From the NCBI GenBank assembly GCA_019306045.1, contig JAFDMG010000004.1:1203-39638 (forward strand): a DNA stretch of 38,436 nt. The letters are read 5' to 3'. Below the pieces are notes generated by a model. That model saw nothing but the letters and a program-made list of their open reading frames with translations, ran no database searches and was not told the DNA's origin. The translations under genes and the position numbers were made by a program. Origin of the DNA: Deltaproteobacteria bacterium. Lineage in GTDB: Bacteria > Desulfobacterota > Anaeroferrophillalia > Anaeroferrophillales > Anaeroferrophillaceae. Of the stretch, positions 6,277 to 38,436 are shown in pieces. Position 1 is the stretch's first letter. The number at the start of each line of letters is the position of its first letter.

Positions 6277-6678
6277 ATGAGCAAGCAGCAGCTGACAGCC
6301 AATATGGAAGACTACCTGGAAGCGATCATGATTCTACAGCGGGACCGCAAGGTGGCCCGGGTCCGGGACATCGCCAAGCTGCTGCAGGTGAAAATGCCCA
6401 GCGTCACCGGGGCGGTGAAAAACCTGGCGGAAAAAGGACTGGTAAATTACGAGCGCTACAGCTTCGTCACCCTGACGGACAAAGGGGTGAAAATTGCCGG
6501 CGAGATCATCAACCGGCACCGGATCATCTACGAATTCCTCAACGGCATTCTCGGTGTCAGTCCGGAAATCGCCGAACTGGACGCCTGCCGCATCGAGCAC
6601 GTCATCAGCCCCCAGACGGTGGCCAAGCTGAAAACCTTCGTGGCCGCCGGGAAAGTCAGCCAAGAACCCGGAGAATAA
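6277..6678 (+). CDS. DtxR/MntR-family metal-dependent transcriptional repressor (short form, no SH3-like domain)
   Basis: 133 aa. The sequence MEDYLEAIMILQRDRKVARVRDIAKLLQVKMPSVTGAVKNLAEKGLVNYERY...LTDKG...INRHRIIYEFL...LGV is the DtxR-type winged HTH plus dimerisation/metal-binding helix pattern. Confidence 0.85.
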   Translation: MSKQQLTANMEDYLEAIMILQRDRKVARVRDIAKLLQVKMPSVTGAVKNLAEKGLVNYERYSFVTLTDKGVKIAGEIINRHRIIYEFLNGILGVSPEIAELDACRIEHVISPQTVAKLKTFVAAGKVSQEPGE

Positions 6679-13655: not shown

Positions 13656-15749
13656 TCAGCCAATGGCAATTCTCCCCAGGGACTGCACCTTCACCGACGG
13701 CGGAATCTCGTTGTGGGAAATGACCGTCAGCCGGGGCACAAACCGCTCCAGCAGCCGCCGCAGGTGGAAGCGGACGATGGGCACCCCGAGCAGCACCGGC
13801 TTGGCGTTGACAATGGCGAACTTTTCCGACAGCTGCTTGATTTTTTCCACCATTTCGTAGACCACGTTCGGTTCCAGGGAGAGGAAAGCCCCGTGGTCGG
13901 TCCGCTGGATCGAGTTGTTGATCAGCTCTTCCAGCTTCGGGTCCAGGGTCATGACATAGAGCATGCCCTCGTCGTTGACGTAGGCCCGGGTGATCGTCCG
14001 GCCGAGTTCCTGGCGGACATACTCGGTGAGGATGTCGACGTCGCGGATCTGCATGGTGTACTCCGCCAGGGTTTCGATAATCGTCATCAGGTCCTTGATC
14101 GGCACCTGTTCCCGCAGCAGGTTCTGCAGCACCTTCTGCAGCACTCCCCAGGGCACCACACTGGGCACCAGGTCTTCCACCGCCTGGGGATATTCCCGGT
14201 TCAGGTTGTCCACCAGCTTCTGGACGTCCTGGCGCCCCAGCAGTTCGTGGGCAAATTCGCGGATCTTTTCCACCAGGTGGGTGGCCACCACCGTCGAGGC
14301 GTCAACCACCGTGTAGCCGGCCAGCTGGGCCCGCTCCCGCTGCTTTTCCTCGATCCACAAAGCTGGCAGGCCAAAGGCGGGTTCGGTGGTGGGAATGCCC
14401 TCGATGGCCGGGGCGTTCTCGTCGGGATTCATCGCCAGGCAGTAGCCGACCATCACCTCGCCCCGGGCCACCTCGTTGCCCTTAATCTTGAGCACGTAGT
14501 CGTTGGGCTTCAGCTGCAAATTGTCGCGGATATGGACCGAGGGCAGGATAAAGCCCATGTCAAGGGCGAACTGGCGGCGGATCAGCTTGATCCGCTCCAG
14601 CAGGTCGCCGCCCTGGGAGGCATCCACCAGGGGAATAAGGCCGTAGCCGACCTCCAGTTCGAGGGGATCGACCCCCAGCAGGTTTTCCACCTGCTCCGGC
14701 TCCTCGGTCACCTGTTCCTCCCGGGCCTGTTCCAGGGCCGCCTGCTTCTCCTCCTCCCGCCGCTGGCGGGTGAGCAGGAAGGCCGAGAGGCCGGCCAGGC
14801 CGGCCAGGGTGAAGAAGGAGAGCTTCGGCAGGCCGGGGATGATGCCGAAAAGGAACAGGGCCACGGCGGCCAGCATCAGGGCCCGGGGATAGGCGGTCAG
14901 CTGGGACCCGAGGTCTTCCCCCATGTTGGTCTCGGAGGCGGTCCGGGTGATGATGATCCCCGAGGCGGTGGAGATGATCAGGGCCGGGATCTGGGAAACC
15001 AGGCCGTCGCCGACAGTGAGGATGGTGTAGGTCTGGGCCGCCTCGCCCATGGACATCCCCTGCTGAAAAGTGCCGATGATGAAGCCGCCGATGATATTGA
15101 TCAGGGTGATAATGATGCCGGCAATGGCGTCGCCGCGCACGAACTTGGCCGCCCCGTCCATCGCCCCGTAAAAATCGGCCTCCCGGCGGATCTCTTCCCG
15201 CCGCTGCCTCGCCTCCTGCTCGCTGATCAGGCCGGCGTTGAGATCGGCGTCGATGCTCATCTGCTTGCCGGGCATGGCGTCGAGGGTGAAGCGGGCCGCG
15301 ACCTCGGCGATCCGCTCGGCGCCCTTGGTAATGACGATGAAGTTGATCAGCACCAGGATAAGGAAGATGATGGTGCCGACCACGTAGTTGCCCCCGACGA
15401 CGAACTGGCCAAACGCCTTGATCACCTGGCCGGCGGCGGCGGCCCCCTCGTTGCCGCGCAGGAGAATCAGCCGCGTCGAGGCCACGTTCAGCGACAGGCG
15501 GAACATGGTGGTCACCAGCAGCAGGGAGGGAAAGATGGAAAACTCCAGGGCCTTGAGCACGTACATGGAGATCAGGAGAATGATGATCGCCACCGTGATG
15601 TTCATGCTCAAAAAGGCATCGAGCAGCACGGTGGGCAGCGGCACGATCATGATCAGCAGGATGCCGATCACTCCCACCGCCAGCACCGCGTCCTTGTTGT
15701 CCACCAAGAGGGCGCGGGAGATCTTGAATGTTCCGGTTCCTTCAGCCAT
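13656..15749 (-). CDS. flhA: Flagellar type III export apparatus protein FlhA
   Basis: About 697 aa with multiple N-terminal TM helices. It carries the conserved FHIPEP block (GAERIAEVAARFTLDAMPGKQMSIDADLNAG) and the cytoplasmic FlhAc domain. ATG at 15747-15749; the ORF track uses the TTG one codon upstream (15752). Confidence 0.97.
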   Translation of the reverse strand: MAEGTGTFKISRALLVDNKDAVLAVGVIGILLIMIVPLPTVLLDAFLSMNITVAIIILLISMYVLKALEFSIFPSLLLVTTMFRLSLNVASTRLILLRGNEGAAAAGQVIKAFGQFVVGGNYVVGTIIFLILVLINFIVITKGAERIAEVAARFTLDAMPGKQMSIDADLNAGLISEQEARQRREEIRREADFYGAMDGAAKFVRGDAIAGIIITLINIIGGFIIGTFQQGMSMGEAAQTYTILTVGDGLVSQIPALIISTASGIIITRTASETNMGEDLGSQLTAYPRALMLAAVALFLFGIIPGLPKLSFFTLAGLAGLSAFLLTRQRREEEKQAALEQAREEQVTEEPEQVENLLGVDPLELEVGYGLIPLVDASQGGDLLERIKLIRRQFALDMGFILPSVHIRDNLQLKPNDYVLKIKGNEVARGEVMVGYCLAMNPDENAPAIEGIPTTEPAFGLPALWIEEKQRERAQLAGYTVVDASTVVATHLVEKIREFAHELLGRQDVQKLVDNLNREYPQAVEDLVPSVVPWGVLQKVLQNLLREQVPIKDLMTIIETLAEYTMQIRDVDILTEYVRQELGRTITRAYVNDEGMLYVMTLDPKLEELINNSIQRTDHGAFLSLEPNVVYEMVEKIKQLSEKFAIVNAKPVLLGVPIVRFHLRRLLERFVPRLTVISHNEIPPSVKVQSLGRIAIG

Positions 15750-15764
15750 CAAGCAGTCTTTCTT

Positions 15765-15877
15765 GTTAGCTGTTAGCTGTTAGCTGTTAGCTGTTAGCTG
15801 TTAGCTGTTAGCTGTTAGCTGTTAGCTGTTAGCTGTTAGCTGTTAGCTGTTAGCTGTTAGCTGTTAGCTGTTAGCTG
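15765..15877. repeat. Perfect tandem heptanucleotide array, (GTTAGCT)x16 plus 1 nt
   Basis: Counted directly: 16 uninterrupted, mismatch-free 7-bp units. The array occupies almost all of the flhB-flhA intergenic spacer. Confidence 0.98.
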
Positions 15878-15883
15878 GACCGT

Positions 15884-17017
15884 TCACAGTTTCCTGCCCT
15901 TCAGTTTGTAGACATAGGCCAGAACCTCGGCCACCGCCTGGTAAAGATCGACGGGGATCACCTCGTTGAGCTGCACCAGCTTGTAGATCATCCGCGCCAG
16001 GGGCTTGTTCTCCACCACCGGCACCCCGTGCTCGCGGGCCACTTTCTTGATGTTCTCAGCGACGATGCCGGCTCCCTTGGCCACCACCAGCGGCGCCGCC
16101 GAACGCTGCTTGTCATAGAGGAGGGCCACCGCCAGGTGCACCGGGTTGGTGATCACCACGTCGGCCCGGGGCACCTCCTGCATCATCCGCTGGCGGGCGG
16201 CGGCCATCTGCAGGCTGCGGATCCTCGACTTGAGCTGCGGGTCCCCTTCCATCTGCTTGAACTCGTCCTTGATTTCGTCCTTGGTCATCTTCAGGTCCTG
16301 GATCCACTCCCAACGCTGGTAAAGGTAGTCGAGCACGGCGAGGGCGGTGAGCACCAGGGAGCAGCGCCAGAGAATCTGGAAAGAGGTCAGGGAAAGGAAA
16401 ACCAGGATCCGGTTGACCGGCTGGTTGAGCAGGCCGAAAAACTCGTGGAAATGGGCCCGGTAGACGGTGAAGGCCACGTACCCCAACACCGTGATCTTGA
16501 AGAGGGATTTTATCAGGTCCACGAGGGAACGCAGGGAAAAGATGCGGCCGAAGCCGGTGATCGGGTTGATCTTGGAGAATTTGGGGATGATCGGCTTGGT
16601 GGTGTAGAGGAAGCCCACCTGCATGATGTTGGCGAGGATGCCCACCACCACCAGGGCCACCATCAGCGGCCCCAGCAGGAGGATAAACTGCTGCATGGCA
16701 AAAAGAGCCAAGTGAAAAAAATTATTTTGGCTGAGTTCCATGAGCAGATAGTTCTGCAGAACATTCTGCAGCATCAGCCGGGAAGTCCGCAGGAACCAAT
16801 GGCCGCCGAAATAGAAAAAAGCCAGCCCGGTGAGCAGGATCATCGCCGACGAAACCTCGACGCTGCGGGCCACCTGCCCTTCCTTGCGGGCGTCCCGGAG
16901 CTTCTTGGGGGTCGGTTTCTCGGTTTTGCTCGGGTCCGTTTTACCAGCGGCTCGCGGCGCTGAAGTCGCCCAACCCGCCCTTTCAGGGCCCAAACCAGGC
17001 AGCTTTCCCGCTTCCAC
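15884..17017 (-). CDS. flhB: Flagellar type III export apparatus protein FlhB
   Basis: N-terminal KTEKPTPKKLRDARKEGQVARSVEV, four TM helices, and the autocleavage NPVH motif in VVITNPVHLAVALLY. The start is GTG at 17015-17017 and is somewhat uncertain. Confidence 0.93.
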   Translation of the reverse strand: MEAGKLPGLGPERAGWATSAPRAAGKTDPSKTEKPTPKKLRDARKEGQVARSVEVSSAMILLTGLAFFYFGGHWFLRTSRLMLQNVLQNYLLMELSQNNFFHLALFAMQQFILLLGPLMVALVVVGILANIMQVGFLYTTKPIIPKFSKINPITGFGRIFSLRSLVDLIKSLFKITVLGYVAFTVYRAHFHEFFGLLNQPVNRILVFLSLTSFQILWRCSLVLTALAVLDYLYQRWEWIQDLKMTKDEIKDEFKQMEGDPQLKSRIRSLQMAAARQRMMQEVPRADVVITNPVHLAVALLYDKQRSAAPLVVAKGAGIVAENIKKVAREHGVPVVENKPLARMIYKLVQLNEVIPVDLYQAVAEVLAYVYKLKGRKL

Positions 17018-28083: not shown

Positions 28084-28231
28084 CGACTAATTGGCGCCGC
28101 GGCCCAAATCATAGCTTTTCTGTCATTTATTGCCGGGGACGGCCGGCCTTGACAGTCGGCTGGCAGGCATGATAGGAGCTGCTAAGTTGTGCTTTCACCC
28201 TAAAACCCCCGGCAAGCGGACATTTCAAGTC

Positions 28232-29005
28232 ATGGCAGCTTCCATTATCGTCGCCCGGGAGGGCAACCTGGCCACCCTCACCCTGAACCGTCCCGGGGAG
28301 CTCAATGCCTTCACCACCGCCATGGTAGCCTGTCTGGAACGGGAGCTGGCGGCGCTGGCCGCCGATCCGGAAGTCAGGGCGGTGATCATCACCGGCGCCG
28401 GGCGGGCCTTCTGCGCCGGGGTCGACATCGGGGAAAAAACCTACAATCCCCTCAACGCCCGCACCTTTCTCAAAACCTTCAACCGGGTGGTCCGCCTGGT
28501 GGAAAACCTGCCCCAGCCGACGGTGGCCGCCCTCAACGGCGCGGCGGTGGCCGGCGGCCTGGAACTGGCCCTGGCCTGCACCTTCCGGGTGGCCGGCGAA
28601 GAGATCAAGCTGGGGCTGCCGGAGATCAATCTCGGCCTGGTGGCGGCGGTGGGCACCACCTACCGGCTGCCGCGGCTGGTGGGTTTCGGCCGGGCGGTGG
28701 AGATGTGCCTGCTGGGAGAGCTGATCAACGGCCGGCAGGCCGCCGACTGGGGACTGGTCAACCGGGCGGTGCCCGGGACGGAAGTCATGGCCGCCGCCCG
28801 CGAGCTGGCCGCCCGGCTGGCCAAACAGCCGCCCGTCGCCCTCAGCCTGGTAAAAGACGCCCTGGTGGTCAACGCCACGCCGCATCTTGAAAGCGCCGCC
28901 CTGCTGGAAATCCTTTCCGCCAGCGTCAATCATTACACCGAGGACAAAAAAGAAGGCCTGGCGGCTTTCAAGGAGCGGCGGCCGCCGCATTTCACCGGCA
29001 GATAA
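28232..29005 (+). CDS. Enoyl-CoA hydratase/isomerase (crotonase superfamily)
   Basis: 257 aa from ATG 28232. IIVAREGNLATLTLNRPGELNAF...VIITGAGRAFCAGVDI...PTVAALNGAAVAGGLELALACTFRVA...EINLGL...EGLAAFKERRPPHF is the crotonase fold pattern. Confidence 0.9.
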   Translation: MAASIIVAREGNLATLTLNRPGELNAFTTAMVACLERELAALAADPEVRAVIITGAGRAFCAGVDIGEKTYNPLNARTFLKTFNRVVRLVENLPQPTVAALNGAAVAGGLELALACTFRVAGEEIKLGLPEINLGLVAAVGTTYRLPRLVGFGRAVEMCLLGELINGRQAADWGLVNRAVPGTEVMAAARELAARLAKQPPVALSLVKDALVVNATPHLESAALLEILSASVNHYTEDKKEGLAAFKERRPPHFTGR

Positions 29006-29019
29006 ACCGGGGAGAAACA

Positions 29020-30033
29020 ATGGCAAACAGTGAAAAAGCCGGCTGCGGCATTGCCGGCCTGGGGTTTTACCTGCCGGCCAAGAAGGTGCCGGTTCTCGAG
29101 CTGGCCGCCCGGGCCGGCATCCCCGAGTTCGTCGCCCGTTTTGTCGGCGCCGAAACCGTGCGGGAGGCCGAGCCGGCAATGCTGCCCACCGACATGGCCA
29201 TCAGGGCGGCGGCGGCCGCCCTGGAAAATGCCGGCCTCGGCCCGGAAGAGATCGACCTGATCATCTACTGCGGCGCCGGCCTCGGCGACTACATCCTGCC
29301 GCCTTCGGCCGGCCGGATCCAGGACGGCATCAAGGCGAAAAACGCCGCCTGCTTCGATCTCGGGCAGGGCTGCGGCGGCATGCTCACCGGCCTCGAGGTG
29401 GCCCGGGGACAGCTGGCCCTCGGGGACGGCTGCGAGACGGTGCTGCTGGTCACCGGCGACAAATGGAGCGCCTTCACCGAGCACCACGCCGCCGACGCGG
29501 TTTTTTTCGGCGACGGGGGCGGGGCGGTCATCGTCCGCCGCGGCCACCAGCGGCTGCAGCCGCTGACCGGCCACCAGGTGGCCCGGGGGGAATACCACGA
29601 CCTCTGGGGCATTCGGGCCGGCGGCCTGCGCCACCCGGCCTCGGCGGCCACCGTGGCCGCCAACGAGCACCTTTACCGCTGCCTCGACCCGCAGCGGGCC
29701 CGGCACGAGTTCAAGGAGATCTACCTGGCGGTAATGCTGGCCACGGTGCGCGAAACCCTGGAAAAAGCCGGCCTCCGGAGCGCCGACATCGCCTATTTCT
29801 CGATGGTCAACGCCAATCTCAAGGTCCAGGAACTGCTGCTGGAACAGCTGGAAATCCCCCTGGCCCGGTCGTCGGCCGCCTACCTGCGGCAATACGGCCA
29901 TTTCGGCTCCCAGGACATCTTTTTCAACCTGGACCTGGCCATCCGGGACGGCCGGCTCCAGCCGGGGGACTTGATCGTCATGCTGACCACCGGCATTGGC
30001 TTCTCCTGGGTCTGCAGCCTCATCAGGTATTGA
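29020..30033 (+). CDS. 3-oxoacyl-ACP synthase III (FabH)-like thiolase-fold protein with a non-canonical catalytic triad
   Basis: 337 aa that aligns along its length to FabH. The Cys is retained (DLGQGCGG). The HQAN motif reads VNAN and the GNTS motif reads GHFGS. The C-terminus (RDGRLQPGDLIVMLTTGIGFSWVCSLIRY) is FabH-like. Confidence 0.8.
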   Translation: MANSEKAGCGIAGLGFYLPAKKVPVLELAARAGIPEFVARFVGAETVREAEPAMLPTDMAIRAAAAALENAGLGPEEIDLIIYCGAGLGDYILPPSAGRIQDGIKAKNAACFDLGQGCGGMLTGLEVARGQLALGDGCETVLLVTGDKWSAFTEHHAADAVFFGDGGGAVIVRRGHQRLQPLTGHQVARGEYHDLWGIRAGGLRHPASAATVAANEHLYRCLDPQRARHEFKEIYLAVMLATVRETLEKAGLRSADIAYFSMVNANLKVQELLLEQLEIPLARSSAAYLRQYGHFGSQDIFFNLDLAIRDGRLQPGDLIVMLTTGIGFSWVCSLIRY

Positions 30034-30063
30034 AAAAACTCCAATCCCGAATCCAAAAAAAGG

Positions 30064-30831
30064 ATGACAAACATGAAACAGAAAAGCCTGACCCCCAACG
30101 CCATGCTGCAGCAGGCGGACGAAGAAACCCTGGTCCTGCTGGTGATGGACGCCCTGCGGCGCATTGTTGCCCACCACGGCTTCTGGTTCGCGGAAACCGA
30201 GCACCAGCTGGGGCTGGAGAAAGCCCTGGAAATCGAGGGCGACGTCTGGCAGGCCAGCCTGGCCAACCAGATGCAGCGCCTCGGCAAGCTGCTCGGCTTT
30301 GAAGTGGAAAACGGCGTTCCCACGGCGCTGAAAAAGCTGCCCCGGGAGACCCTGGCCGAGCTGGTGGAAAAAATCGCCGTCAACTGGCTGGCCAATGACG
30401 GCATCTGGTTCCAGGCGGTGGAGAACAAGTACGGCATGTTCGATGCCAAGCGCTGCAACGACACCTGCTGGACCCGGTTTTCGCCCTACGAGGCCACCCG
30501 GATCAAGAAGCTGCTTGAACTGCCGGCCAACGGCGGCCTGCCGGCCTTGAAACAGGCCCTGGCCTTCCGCCTTTACGCGGTGATCAACGAGCAGTCCATC
30601 GAGGAGGTCGACGACCACAGCTTCATCTTCCGGATGAACAACTGCCGGGTGCAGGCGGCCCGGAAAAGGAAAGGGCTGCCGGACTACCCCTGCAAGTCGG
30701 CGGGCATGGTGGAATACCCCTGTTTCGCCGCCACCATCGATCCGCGGATCAAGACCGAATGCCTCGGCTGCCCGCCCGACGACCATCCGCCGGAGTGGTT
30801 CTGCGCCTGGAAATTCACCCTGGAGGAATAA
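30064..30831 (+). CDS. Conserved Cys-rich hypothetical protein (possibly L-2-amino-thiazoline-4-carboxylate-hydrolase-like / DUF family; unverified)
   Basis: 252-255 aa; ATG 30073 has the better RBS spacing. The C-terminal cluster is C-x18-C-x9-C-x13-C-x2-C-x11-C (NNCRVQAARKRKGLPDYPCKSAGMVEYPCFAATIDPRIKTECLGCPPDDHPPEWFCAW). It follows the KAS III-like gene after 30 nt. Confidence 0.65.
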   Translation: MTNMKQKSLTPNAMLQQADEETLVLLVMDALRRIVAHHGFWFAETEHQLGLEKALEIEGDVWQASLANQMQRLGKLLGFEVENGVPTALKKLPRETLAELVEKIAVNWLANDGIWFQAVENKYGMFDAKRCNDTCWTRFSPYEATRIKKLLELPANGGLPALKQALAFRLYAVINEQSIEEVDDHSFIFRMNNCRVQAARKRKGLPDYPCKSAGMVEYPCFAATIDPRIKTECLGCPPDDHPPEWFCAWKFTLEE

Positions 30832-30900
30832 CCCCCGGCCGCCGGCCCGGCGCCGGGAAGCGGCCAGCAACCACAACTTTTTCAAGGGAGAAAACCGCCG

Positions 30901-31389
30901 ATGACCACCAACAACTGGCAGCAGCCCCCGGCCATGGAGATTGACCCGCAAAAGCAATACCGGGTAATCATGGAAACCGACCGCGGGGTGATCGAACTGG
31001 AACTTTACCCGCAGTACGCCCCGCAGACGGTCAACAACTTTGTCTTCCTGGCCCGCAACCGGTTTTACGACGGGGTCAAGTTTCACCGGGTGATCAGTGA
31101 TTTCATGATCCAGGGCGGCGACCCGACCGGCACCGGCACCGGCGGCCCCGGCTACACTTTCGCCGACGAATTCGCCGGCAACCCCCTGACCCACGAGAGC
31201 AAGGTGATTTCGATGGCCAATGCCGGTCCCGACACCAACGGCAGCCAGTTCTTCATCACCCACTGCCCCCAGCCCCACCTGGACGGCCACCACACGGTGT
31301 TCGGCAAGGTAATCCGGGGGGAGGAAGTGGTGGACGCCATCCGGCAGGGGGACGCGATGCTCACCGTCCGGGTGGTCGAGGAGGCCTGA
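30901..31389 (+). CDS. ppiB: Cyclophilin-type peptidyl-prolyl cis-trans isomerase (cytoplasmic)
   Basis: 162 aa. [31 protein letters not shown]...[16 protein letters not shown]...[11 protein letters not shown] is canonical cyclophilin. No signal peptide. Confidence 0.93.
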
Positions 31390-31443
31390 GGCGAAAACCC
31401 GCCGGCCGCAGCCGCCCAGCCGGGGCCGACATGACCGCACAAC

Positions 31444-32576: not shown

Positions 32577-34229
<1,653 letters not shown>

Positions 34230-36999: not shown

Positions 37000-38061
37000 T
37001 CAACGCAAGATGATGCCGCCGGCCCCCTCGCCGGCGGCGGTAAAGCGGCCCACCTCCCAGGTCGACTGGCCGGCGGCGGCAAAGGCCTGCCGCACTCGCG
37101 GCAGGCAATCCGGCGCCACGGCCAGCAGCAGGCCGCCGGAGGTCTGGGGATCAAACAGCAGGTCAACCAGCAGGTCGTCGGCGGCGCCGGCCTCCCGGCG
37201 CACCCGGCAGCCGAAAAATTCCCGGTTGCGGCTGCCGCCCTCCGGGAACATGCCCATGGCGACATATTCCCGCGCCCCCGGCAGCAGGGGCACCGCCGCC
37301 AGCTCGACGACCGCCGTCAACCCGCCGGCGGCCACCATCTCGCTCAAGTGGCCAAGGAAACCGAAGCCGGTAATGTCGGTGCAGGCGTGCACCGCCGGCC
37401 GCCAGGGAGCGGCGGAGTCTTCCGGCGGCAGCCGGTTCAGGGCCGCCATGTAAGCAAAAGCCTCCTCCAGGTCCGCCGCCGCACAGAAGCCGGCTTTCAG
37501 GGCGGTGCTCAGCACCCCGTTGCCCAGGGGCTTGGTGAGCAGCAGCCGGTCGCCCGCCCGGGCGCCGGTATTCCGCCAGAAGCGCTGCGGATGCACGAGG
37601 CCGGTGACCGCGAGACCGTACTTGATCTCCGGGTCCTCGACGCTGTGGCCGCCGGCAAGCACCGCCCCGGCCTCGGCAATTTTGGCCAGGCCGCCGGCCA
37701 GAATCCGGCGCAGGTAGTCATTGTCCAGGGTACGGATGGGGAAAGCGACAATGTTCATCGCCGTCAGGGGGTCGCCGCCCATGGAGTAGACATCGCTGAA
37801 GGCATTGGCGGCGGCAATCTGGCCGAAAAGCCAGGGATCATCGACCATGGGCGGAAAAAAATCCAGGGTCTGCACCAGCGCCCGCTCGGCGTCGAGCCGG
37901 AAAACGCCGGCATCGTCGGCCCCCTCAATGCCCACCAGCAGCCGGTCGTCCACCGGCAGCGGCAGGTCGCGCAAAATCGCCTCCAGGTCGCCCGGACCTA
38001 TCTTGGCGGCTCAGCCGGAAGCGGTTACCATGGTGGTCAGTCTGATCTGCTCGACGGTCAT
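37000..38061 (-). CDS. selD: Selenide, water dikinase (selenophosphate synthetase) SelD, selenocysteine-containing (in-frame TGA at 38011-38013)
   Basis: The ORF track gives only residues after the TGA. Extending upstream in frame gives MTVEQIRLTTMVTASG-U-AAKIGPGDLEAILRDLPLP. This restores the conserved SelD N-terminal glycine-rich loop, with Sec where E. coli SelD has Cys17. The rest is canonical SelD/AIR-synthase fold (DDAGVF, DFFPPMVDDP, FGQIAAANAFSDVYSMGG). Confidence 0.85.
37985..38010 (-). promoter_or_regulatory. Candidate bacterial SECIS element in selD mRNA
   Basis: The mRNA after UGA reads GCCGCCAAGAU-AGGUC-CGGGC-GACCU. This is a 5-bp stem with a G-rich 5-nt apical loop. The stem begins 11 nt after the UGA, and the apical loop starts at about +16. 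The stem is short. Confidence 0.4.
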
Positions 38062-38330
38062 GGTTTTAGCCTGTCAGCTCAGTGCTGTCCGGTTAGGTGC
38101 TTGCATATCGTCAGCCAGTGCTGTTTTCAGCGCTTTTGGCGCTCGCTTGCCTGTTTTGCCAGCGGCTCATGTCGCTAAAGTTGCCAAACTCGCCCTTTCA
38201 GGACTCAAACAAGGCAACTTTTTCACGCTCCCATCGCCGGGAAAAACAACGGCAGTTCACGATGTCGCGCCGAAAAACAGCCCTGGTTGCCGACTTTAAA
38301 AATGCCAGAAGTATACCAGACACTGCTGCT

Positions 38331-38436
38331 GTTAGCTGTTAGCTGTTAGCTGTTAGCTGTTAGCTGTTAGCTGTTAGCTGTTAGCTGTTAGCTGTTAGCT
38401 GTTAGCTGTTAGCTGTTAGCTGTTAGCTGTTAGCTG
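38331..38436. repeat. Perfect tandem heptanucleotide array, (GTTAGCT)x15 plus 1 nt, truncated by the window end
   Basis: Counted directly. It has the same unit and the same orientation as the array at 15765-15877. There are no mismatches, and it continues to the last base of the window. Confidence 0.98.

Follow-up and report, generated by a model that had tools for sequence, protein, structure and literature searches.

A perfect GCTGTTA heptanucleotide array upstream of selD is probably a young, slippage-prone copy of a genome-dispersed simple-sequence repeat

Among long simple-sequence repeats (LSSRs), heptamers are the most abundant class in many prokaryotes, and polymerase slippage has been given as their cause (Mrazek, Guo & Shah 2007; summaries in PMC4679880 and PMC4692102). 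Xanthomonas genomes carry about 185 GGGAATC arrays each, 89–93% of them intergenic and equally represented on both strands (Rehm et al. 2015, PMC4692102). These arrays fall between co-directional genes (30–35% in each co-directional class), convergent genes (16%) and divergent genes (7–8%), with one neighbour 28 nt away and the other at 160 nt, and form about 70 convergent inverted pairs, with lengths that are not conserved between close species (PMC4692102). In Nostoc, a 26-unit array lies within the operon pec, separating pecE from pecF (PMC4692102). TAACTGA repeats are likewise intergenic, often stand directly upstream of start codons and break contigs, and the same spacers of close relatives lack them (MacGregor 2015, PMC4679880). 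Aklujkar et al. 2009 (PMC2700814) list families of hepta- and octanucleotides in Geobacter metallireducens, some with sites that are paired across the two strands.

We analysed a 38,436-nt stretch of DNA (the window) with a G+C content of 64%. Its minus strand carries the flagellar genes flgI, flgH, flgA, a rod gene, a sigma-54 activator and its kinase, fliA, flhG, flhF, flhA, flhB, fliR, fliP, fliO, fliN, fliM, fliL, motB and motA, together with genes for a 2-oxoacid:ferredoxin oxidoreductase, groES-groEL, a U32 peptidase and selD; the sole gene called on the plus strand belongs to an iron-dependent-repressor family (6277–6678). Two overlapping long minus-strand ORFs (28933–31440, 835 aa, and 28127–29179, 350 aa) have no Pfam match, and four copies of CATGCCGCC at the GroEL C-terminus (32583–32618) code for an ordinary Gly-Gly-Met repeat tail. 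The two arrays and their surroundings are as follows.

13656–15749, minus strand: flhA (FHIPEP, Pfam), with its ATG at 15749, which on the mRNA strand follows array A after 14 nt
15750–15763, minus strand: 14 nt left over from the translation-initiation region of flhA, AAGAAAGACUGCUUG before the AUG
15764–15877, plus strand: array A, 16.3 perfect copies of GCTGTTA (Tandem Repeats Finder, probe scan)
15884–17017, minus strand: flhB (Bac_export_2, Pfam), with its TGA stop at 15884–15886, 6 nt before array A on the mRNA strand
37000–38061, minus strand: selD (selenide, water dikinase; Pfam), with its ATG at 38061 and an in-frame TGA at codon 17
38062–38327, minus strand: unique spacer of 266 nt from array B to the selD start
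38328–38436, plus strand: array B, 15.6 perfect copies of GCTGTTA (Tandem Repeats Finder, probe scans)

Array B is 109 nt of (GCTGTTA)n with a period of 7 and 100% matches, and the last base of the window, 38436, still lies within it. Array A, 22,450 nt away, comprises 114 nt of the same unit, also with a period of 7 and 100% matches. The plus strand reads GCTGTTA in both arrays, which are thus identical in orientation; in the sense of selD, array B reads (TAACAGC)n. The first-pass annotation had described a perfect array of at least 15 units running to the window end, and two mismatch-free arrays of one unit in one orientation, and Tandem Repeats Finder and the probe scan agree with it. Its start for array B, 38331, shifts by a 3-nt difference in phase to 38328, and its distances to the genes needed only small corrections (from about 15 to 14 nt for flhA and from about 270 to 266 nt for selD). 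It had also taken selD for a selenoprotein gene, rightly so, because an in-frame TGA (selenocysteine) stands at codon 17 (38011–38013), the position of the catalytic Cys/Sec; the selD of a relative (L121) has the same in-frame TGA. The identities of FlhB, FlhA and SelD are backed by Pfam; the flhB start codon is uncertain (a 377-aa ORF here against 353 aa in relatives).

A probe of two units (14 nt, up to 2 mismatches) matched 29 sites in the window, against 0.04 expected from dinucleotide-preserving shuffles, and all 29 fall within arrays A and B. Scanning both strands of the window with a degenerate probe, TTAGCNNTTAGC, recovered no further or degenerate copy outside the two arrays, and inverted copies of the unit occur nowhere in the window. 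The 7-nt units of array B are contiguous, with no spacers between them, and we rejected a CRISPR array, which requires repeats of 23–50 nt separated by unique spacers of similar size. The unit is poorer in G+C than its host genome (43% vs 64%) and contains no G-tract. It carries the stop codons TAG on its plus strand and TAA on its minus strand, and because a period of 7 is coprime to 3, a stop recurs within 21 nt in all six frames, so that a GCTGTTA array cannot be coding. Both arrays are intergenic: 134 nt separate the flhB stop from the flhA start, and array A takes up 114 of them, while array B lies upstream of selD.

Finding one unit at two loci with unrelated flanks supports the earlier proposal of a dispersed family rather than a local accident: were units random draws, identical units at two such loci would arise by chance about once in 1,000 cases, and other genomes and populations also carry GCTGTTA at several loci. 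The best match between the flanks of arrays A and B spans 11 nt (E 0.09). Because the flanks share no more than this, the arrays do not belong to any larger element, duplicated or mobile, a candidate that we also rejected for want of any transposase-type gene; transposase, reverse transcriptase and RAYT-like genes are absent from the ORFs of the window. REP, BIME and REPIN elements are palindromic units of 20–40 nt, usually in inverted pairs, in genomes with a RAYT transposase. The window has neither an inverted copy of the unit nor a transposase-like gene, and this assignment was rejected as well.

Evidence on how such arrays change comes from the GCTGTTA loci of other organisms. Between sibling metagenomes in which the flanks are identical at 300 of 300 positions, array lengths differ by 14, 21, 7 and 7 nt; identical flanks combined with whole-unit steps indicate slippage, with gain and loss of units. 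The locus groups in which we observed this copy-number polymorphism are L122/L197, L124/L181 and L167/L174/L196. We consider it likely that array B is a copy of a genome-dispersed heptanucleotide simple-sequence repeat that is slippage-prone, young and non-coding. Slippage presumably operates in the window's own organism as well, where replication strand slippage would change array length in steps of whole 7-nt units. The array would be non-coding DNA that survives solely between genes, because its unit puts stops in every frame of both strands. Most likely the arrays have no sequence-specific function and are probably neutral, their effect being that of a variable-length transcribed spacer, which would sit between flhB and flhA and upstream of selD. 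Further copies are to be expected elsewhere in the genome. Recombination between the direct arrays A and B is physically plausible; a deletion arising in this way would take out groESL together with most of the flagellar genes.

Neither strand of the array, taken as single-stranded DNA, folds better than its shuffles (z −0.9 and −1.1), and hairpin-assisted slippage is not supported by these values. In RNA form, the gene-sense transcript (CAGCUAA)n is predicted to be mildly structured, with only 4-bp AGCU helices (−31 kcal/mol, z −2.6), and the antisense RNA, whose expression is hypothetical, has a strong predicted fold of −61 kcal/mol (z −7.0).

Slippage alone leaves two things unexplained, namely how one unit arrived in two unrelated spacers 22 kb apart and why one unit dominates per genome. 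To our knowledge, a dispersal mechanism has been established for no member of the heptamer-repeat class.

The position of array B at the very end of the window raises the question of assembly. We scanned JGI metagenome contigs for twelve units (at least 84 nt) and recovered 77 loci, of which 37 end at a contig end, in line with the earlier suggestion that the array had probably broken the assembly if the window end is a contig end. None of the internal arrays among these loci exceeds 129 nt, a limit that bears the mark of a k-mer ceiling. By chance, the boundary of the window would land inside an array of about 110 nt on a 39.6-kb contig in about 0.3% of cases. Most likely, then, array B ended the contig, and position 38436 would be the contig end. 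Short-read assemblers cannot bridge arrays that exceed their k-mer if the unit is present at more than one locus. Because array A (114 nt) was bridged, array B probably exceeds the largest k-mer of the assembler. On the left side, a minus-strand flagellar rod/hook-family gene runs off the window end (1–185), its N-terminus MPIGLSNTLNTSRLSLFSQQTNIDIIGHNVANVNTPGY starting at about 185; being truncated, it can hold the extra 1,202 nt of the source contig, a JGI contig of 39,638 nt, and these fit on that side.

A chimeric join or mis-extension could in principle have copied the flhB-flhA array onto the contig end, since array B has no right flank and matches array A in unit, orientation and, nearly, in size (109 vs 114 nt). 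We regard such an artefact as very improbable. The junction of array B with the unique sequence upstream of selD differs from both junctions of array A, contig ends within genuine arrays are the expected behaviour of short-read assemblers, and GCTGTTA arrays are internal, with unique flanks, in isolate genomes, among them a complete Maribacter chromosome with an array of 138 nt. With array B as a genuine repeat, the array itself would explain why the contig stops 266 nt upstream of selD, the genome probably holds more copies that fragment short-read assemblies, and the assembled lengths (114 nt for array A, at least 109 nt for array B) have to be read as lower bounds or as fragile estimates.

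We next turned to relatives of the source organism. The best protein matches are to uncultured Deltaproteobacteria or Desulfobacterota, one of them labelled Dissulfuribacterales. In the closest available genome (GCA_054011015.1; FlhA 96% and SelD 81% identical), gene order is the same at the flhB-flhA and selD loci and neither carries an array. The flhB-flhA spacer of this relative is 122 nt long, G+C-rich and without the unit; alignment with the window is limited to the coding flanks and to the final ~15 nt that precede the flhA ATG, and the 14-nt remnant at 15750–15763 is the only part of the spacer still alignable. As judged from this comparison, the ancestral spacer seems to have been replaced and not merely expanded (134 nt now vs 122 nt in the relative). 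The spacer that array A occupies in the window contains, in the relative (L199, 7410–7531), a G+C-rich palindrome with a 13-bp stem, CTGCCCGGCTGCC GCC GGCAGCCGGGCAG. At the other locus, a divergent corC/hlyC-type gene without any repeat precedes selD in the relative, and the region upstream of selD cannot be aligned with the 266-nt spacer of the window. Two further relatives (FlhA 86–88% identical) have flhB-flhA spacers of 282–300 nt, again without the unit, and across 80 kb of sequence from relatives we found no 11-mer of the unit and no array of period 7. Because no array stands at the same loci in relatives, the arrays appear lineage-specific and recent, and the perfect purity of both fits a recent origin; by this sequence evidence, both window arrays are evolutionarily young.

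Beyond these relatives, we scanned one genome per prokaryotic species for three units (21 nt) and found at least 120 such stretches. Among the matches listed are Desulfobacterota, Acidobacteriota, Gemmatimonadota, Bacteroidota, Planctomycetota, Chloroflexota, Cyanobacteria and others, with G+C contents from 29% to 75%, and they include isolates and one complete chromosome; among the first 80 of the matches listed, at least 8 metagenome-assembled genomes have two or more contigs with arrays. This wide phyletic spread does not imply a conserved functional unit, because permuted heptamers are almost as frequent: in viral contigs the real unit gave 24 matches against 8, 19 and 10 for three permuted heptamers of the same composition. 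We rejected a conserved functional unit for this reason, and the idea is also undercut by the other heptamer units that fill the same loci. In 0.9 Mb of array-bearing loci there are 57 other perfect heptamer arrays with unrelated units, while periods of 5, 6, 8 and 9 are rare (1, 10, 1 and 2 arrays). The special trait of array-bearing genomes is thus the 7-nt period and not the GCTGTTA unit itself. The other units include ACTCATC, ACTGAGG, AAAGTTC, ACGGCAG and AACGAGG, several of them present as inverted pairs; examples lie in L002 (806–884), L032 (3445–3518), L095 (1937–2056 and 6766–6851), L098 (7159–7253) and L053 (2036–2103).

In one soil sample, six array-bearing contigs correlate at 0.94–0.98 in their tetranucleotides, from which we conclude that a single soil population holds many long arrays. 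By the same measure, none of the fetched loci comes from the organism of the window (best correlation 0.89 vs 0.97 for the true relative). The doubled TAACAGC/GCTGTTA unit was not found in any searchable paper.

Next, we explored where arrays stand relative to genes, using 144 internal GCTGTTA arrays drawn from 197 fetched loci and the window's own internal array, with genes called by a simple ORF caller that relies heuristically on codon-position G+C. Not one of the 144 falls within an ORF so called. In the (TAACAGC)n reading, the arrays stand between co-directional genes in the forward sense (44) or the reverse sense (37), between convergent genes (33) and between divergent genes (16), a convergent-to-divergent ratio of about 2:1. 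The 3′ end of (TAACAGC)n adjoins a neighbouring gene (median 4–25 nt), while the other side is 79–157 nt from the next gene. The first-pass annotation had raised a bias of arrays to one orientation and to 5′ regions. Neither is borne out: forward and reverse arrays between co-directional genes are nearly balanced, and array A can be described equally well as 3′ of flhB, at 6 nt, or as 5′ of flhA, at 14 nt. That arrays A and B are co-oriented says little, because all genes of the window but one are on the minus strand.

These placements bear on whether the arrays might act as cis-regulatory binding sites in mRNA leaders that tune translation of the downstream gene. A trans-acting RNA-binding protein would then read UAAC-containing heptamers, as proposed for the TAACTGA repeats of Beggiatoaceae, with ribosomal protein S1, a cold-shock protein or a CsrA-like protein as candidates. 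Array A stops 14 nt short of the flhA AUG, its 'forward' sense matching that of the TAACTGA repeats, with which TAACAGC shares 5 of 7 bases, and the flhA leader has only a weak Shine-Dalgarno-like AAGAAAG; arrays A and B also have the same sense relative to their downstream genes, and where arrays elsewhere lie forward between co-directional genes, the median distance from array end to start codon is 25 nt. We nevertheless judge a binding-site role unlikely, given the lack of orientation bias over the 144 arrays. In long arrays the reverse unit directly after a stop codon is the commoner arrangement, 266 nt separate array B from the start of selD, the same operon runs in relatives that have no array, permuted heptamers come close to the real unit in frequency, and a binding protein is known for no heptamer family.

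The arrays might alternatively be contingency loci, acting by phase variation or as a rheostat, in which slippage would grade flagellar export and selD expression across the population after the model of the 7-bp repeats upstream of Haemophilus influenzae hmw1A/hmw2A. Flagella are classic phase-variable structures, and the whole-unit length polymorphism seen between samples speaks for this reading. There is also precedent in heptanucleotide repeats upstream of genes that grade expression via 5′-UTR effects (PMC12721329, PMC8262952). Against this stand the genes and the sites themselves. Searches for sigma-70 promoters and intrinsic terminators beside both arrays returned nothing above shuffles, a change of array length here shifts no reading frame, and selD is a housekeeping gene. 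Elsewhere the arrays flank genes in every orientation, often between convergent gene ends from which they are unable to control initiation, and long SSR families of 5–11 nt have been described mainly in non-host-adapted bacteria with no link to antigenic genes. We therefore hold a contingency function to be quite unlikely, and keep the spacer-like simple-sequence repeat as the preferred reading.

The 266-nt spacer between array B and selD was also searched for signals of its own. Rfam at its gathering threshold gave no family in the window, this spacer included, and there is no sigma-54 consensus upstream of selD. The spacer contains an imperfect inverted repeat, AAGTTGCC ... GGCAACTT, at 38180–38235, with about 25 nt between its arms, which could be a candidate regulator site.

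In many phyla, GCTGTTA arrays occur in inverted pairs of the form (GCTGTTA)n, a spacer of 20–120 nt and (TAACAGC)m, with this polarity exceeding the reverse by about 10:1. Such pairs are found in L003 (3233–3341), L035 (2117–2208), L039 (4356–4478), L104 (4676–4777), L108 (7817–7931), L086 (7334–7440) and L052 (3877–4003), and in L052 degenerate units co-vary between the arms (GCCGTTA with TAACGGC or TAATGGC). Overall, at least two inverted GCTAA cores lie within 200 nt on the 3′ side of (GCTGTTA)n in 33% of arrays, compared with 3.5% on the 5′ side; in the genome set alone the 3′ figure is 39%. The asymmetry in gene distance arises in part because a degenerate inverted partner lies on the far side.

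Array B might accordingly be the left arm of such a pair, with its right arm beyond a short spacer and outside the window. The pair would then form a long hairpin or cruciform, REP-like or terminator-like, between selD and the neighbour beyond the window, an arrangement compatible with the main simple-sequence-repeat reading. The 3′ side, on which partners concentrate, is precisely the side of array B that the window does not reach, and the co-variation of arm units in L052 and the roughly 70 convergent pairs of Xanthomonas GGGAATC lend the idea further weight. We still rate it as rather unlikely for array B, since only 17% of long arrays (at least 12 units) have an inverted partner, array A has none and is followed by the flhB stop after 6 nt, and the window contains no inverted unit.

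Degenerate units offer a second view of constraint. In 653 variant units, defined as degenerate in-phase units beside pure arrays in loci L001–L198, conservation along TTAGCTG is 0.72, 0.73, 0.79, 0.93, 0.88, 0.63 and 0.58 by position, so that the AGC core is kept (G 0.93, C 0.88) while the last two positions vary (0.58–0.63). Together with the polar architecture of the inverted pairs, retention of this core hints at constraint beyond neutral decay. Taken further, TTAGCNN-type heptamer arrays would be a family that spans phyla and owes its formation or upkeep to an active, sequence-directed process and not to passive slippage; the agent of the process could be a protein or a templated mechanism recognising the conserved AGC core. 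This proposal draws on the polarity 5′-(TTAGCTG)n-loop-(CAGCTAA)m-3′ (about 10:1 over the reverse), on the pure array end adjoining the neighbouring gene, and on the presence of GCTGTTA in at least seven phyla, from Desulfobacterota to Cyanobacteria. We consider it improbable and put it forward as speculation. If true, both 16-unit arrays of the window would be recent products of the process, and identifying its agent would account for the excess of 7-nt repeats that has long been noted in bacteria.

On the preferred reading of a dispersed, slippage-prone simple-sequence repeat, the arrays alone open no new mechanism. They extend the heptanucleotide repeat families by a new unit and by an uncultured deltaproteobacterial lineage of the sulfur cycle. 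In addition, the 96%-identical relative provides a clean before-and-after pair for one insertion or expansion in an essential flagellar export operon. As regards other named families, Mazel et al. reportedly described in 1990 the STRR units CCCCAGT, TTGGTCA and CAACAGT in heterocystous cyanobacteria. GCTGTTA does not belong with these; its best correspondence is AACAGCT against AACAGTC, and its host is a relative of Desulfobacterota.

Compared with the described systems, GCTGTTA arrays probably belong to the dispersed heptanucleotide LSSR class. As in the repeats of Mrazek 2007, so far as the summaries of that work describe them, perfect 7-nt units are arranged in tandem far beyond chance, stand between genes and, to judge from the two loci here and from other genomes, are shared by several loci of a genome, slippage changes their length, and the heptamer is the dominant period. 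The differences lie in the unit, GCTGTTA/TAACAGC being absent from the searchable literature, and in the host, an uncultured Desulfobacterota lineage near Dissulfuribacterales that is not among the taxa originally listed, by the same summaries.

The resemblance to GGGAATC and GGGGA(T/C)T of Xanthomonas and Nostoc (PMC4692102) extends to architecture. Both kinds of repeat are dispersed and mostly intergenic (~90%), without strand or replication bias; convergent placements outnumber divergent ones by about 2:1 in Xanthomonas as among GCTGTTA arrays; one end lies near a gene (28 vs 160 nt there, 4–25 vs 79–157 nt for GCTGTTA); convergent inverted pairs are frequent; and lengths are unconserved between close relatives. 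The AGC-core pattern of GCTGTTA variants resembles GGGANTN of Xanthomonas, and a long perfect array within an operon occurs in both, at pecE-pecF in Nostoc and at flhB-flhA here. GGGAATC and GGGGA(T/C)T differ in being G-rich and G-quadruplex-forming, whereas GCTGTTA has no G-tract and only weak AGCU self-pairing potential.

TAACTGA of marine Beggiatoaceae, Cyanobacteria and Bacteroidetes (PMC4679880) is similar in 5 of 7 bases, in its intergenic position and in having stops in all frames; it too can directly precede start codons that lack a good Shine-Dalgarno sequence, forms long arrays in some species, is missing from the same spacer in close relatives and leaves contigs ending in repeats. 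By its unit, however, GCTGTTA is not a member of the TAACTGA network, the gene-sense unit being TAACAGC (5/7 identical). The BOGUAY sets have 2–6 copies with a strong forward bias just upstream of start codons, whereas here there are about 16 copies and no orientation bias across genomes, and a start codon is close by in the case of array A only (the flhA AUG at 14 nt, against 266 nt from array B to the selD AUG).

The families of G. metallireducens (PMC2700814) are multicopy tandem units of 7–8 nt of unknown function in what is, broadly, the same phylum, and they differ in unit (GGACCGG, MTYCTGA), in having 4–5 copies per site and in being partly intragenic. The 7-bp promoter and 5′-UTR repeats of H. 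influenzae hmw1A/hmw2A share a heptanucleotide repeat upstream of a gene with a copy number driven by slippage; they are single-purpose loci of a host-adapted pathogen with a demonstrated effect on expression, whereas no such effect is predictable for GCTGTTA. Set beside these systems, GCTGTTA is a new unit in a new host lineage within a known kind of bacterial repeat.
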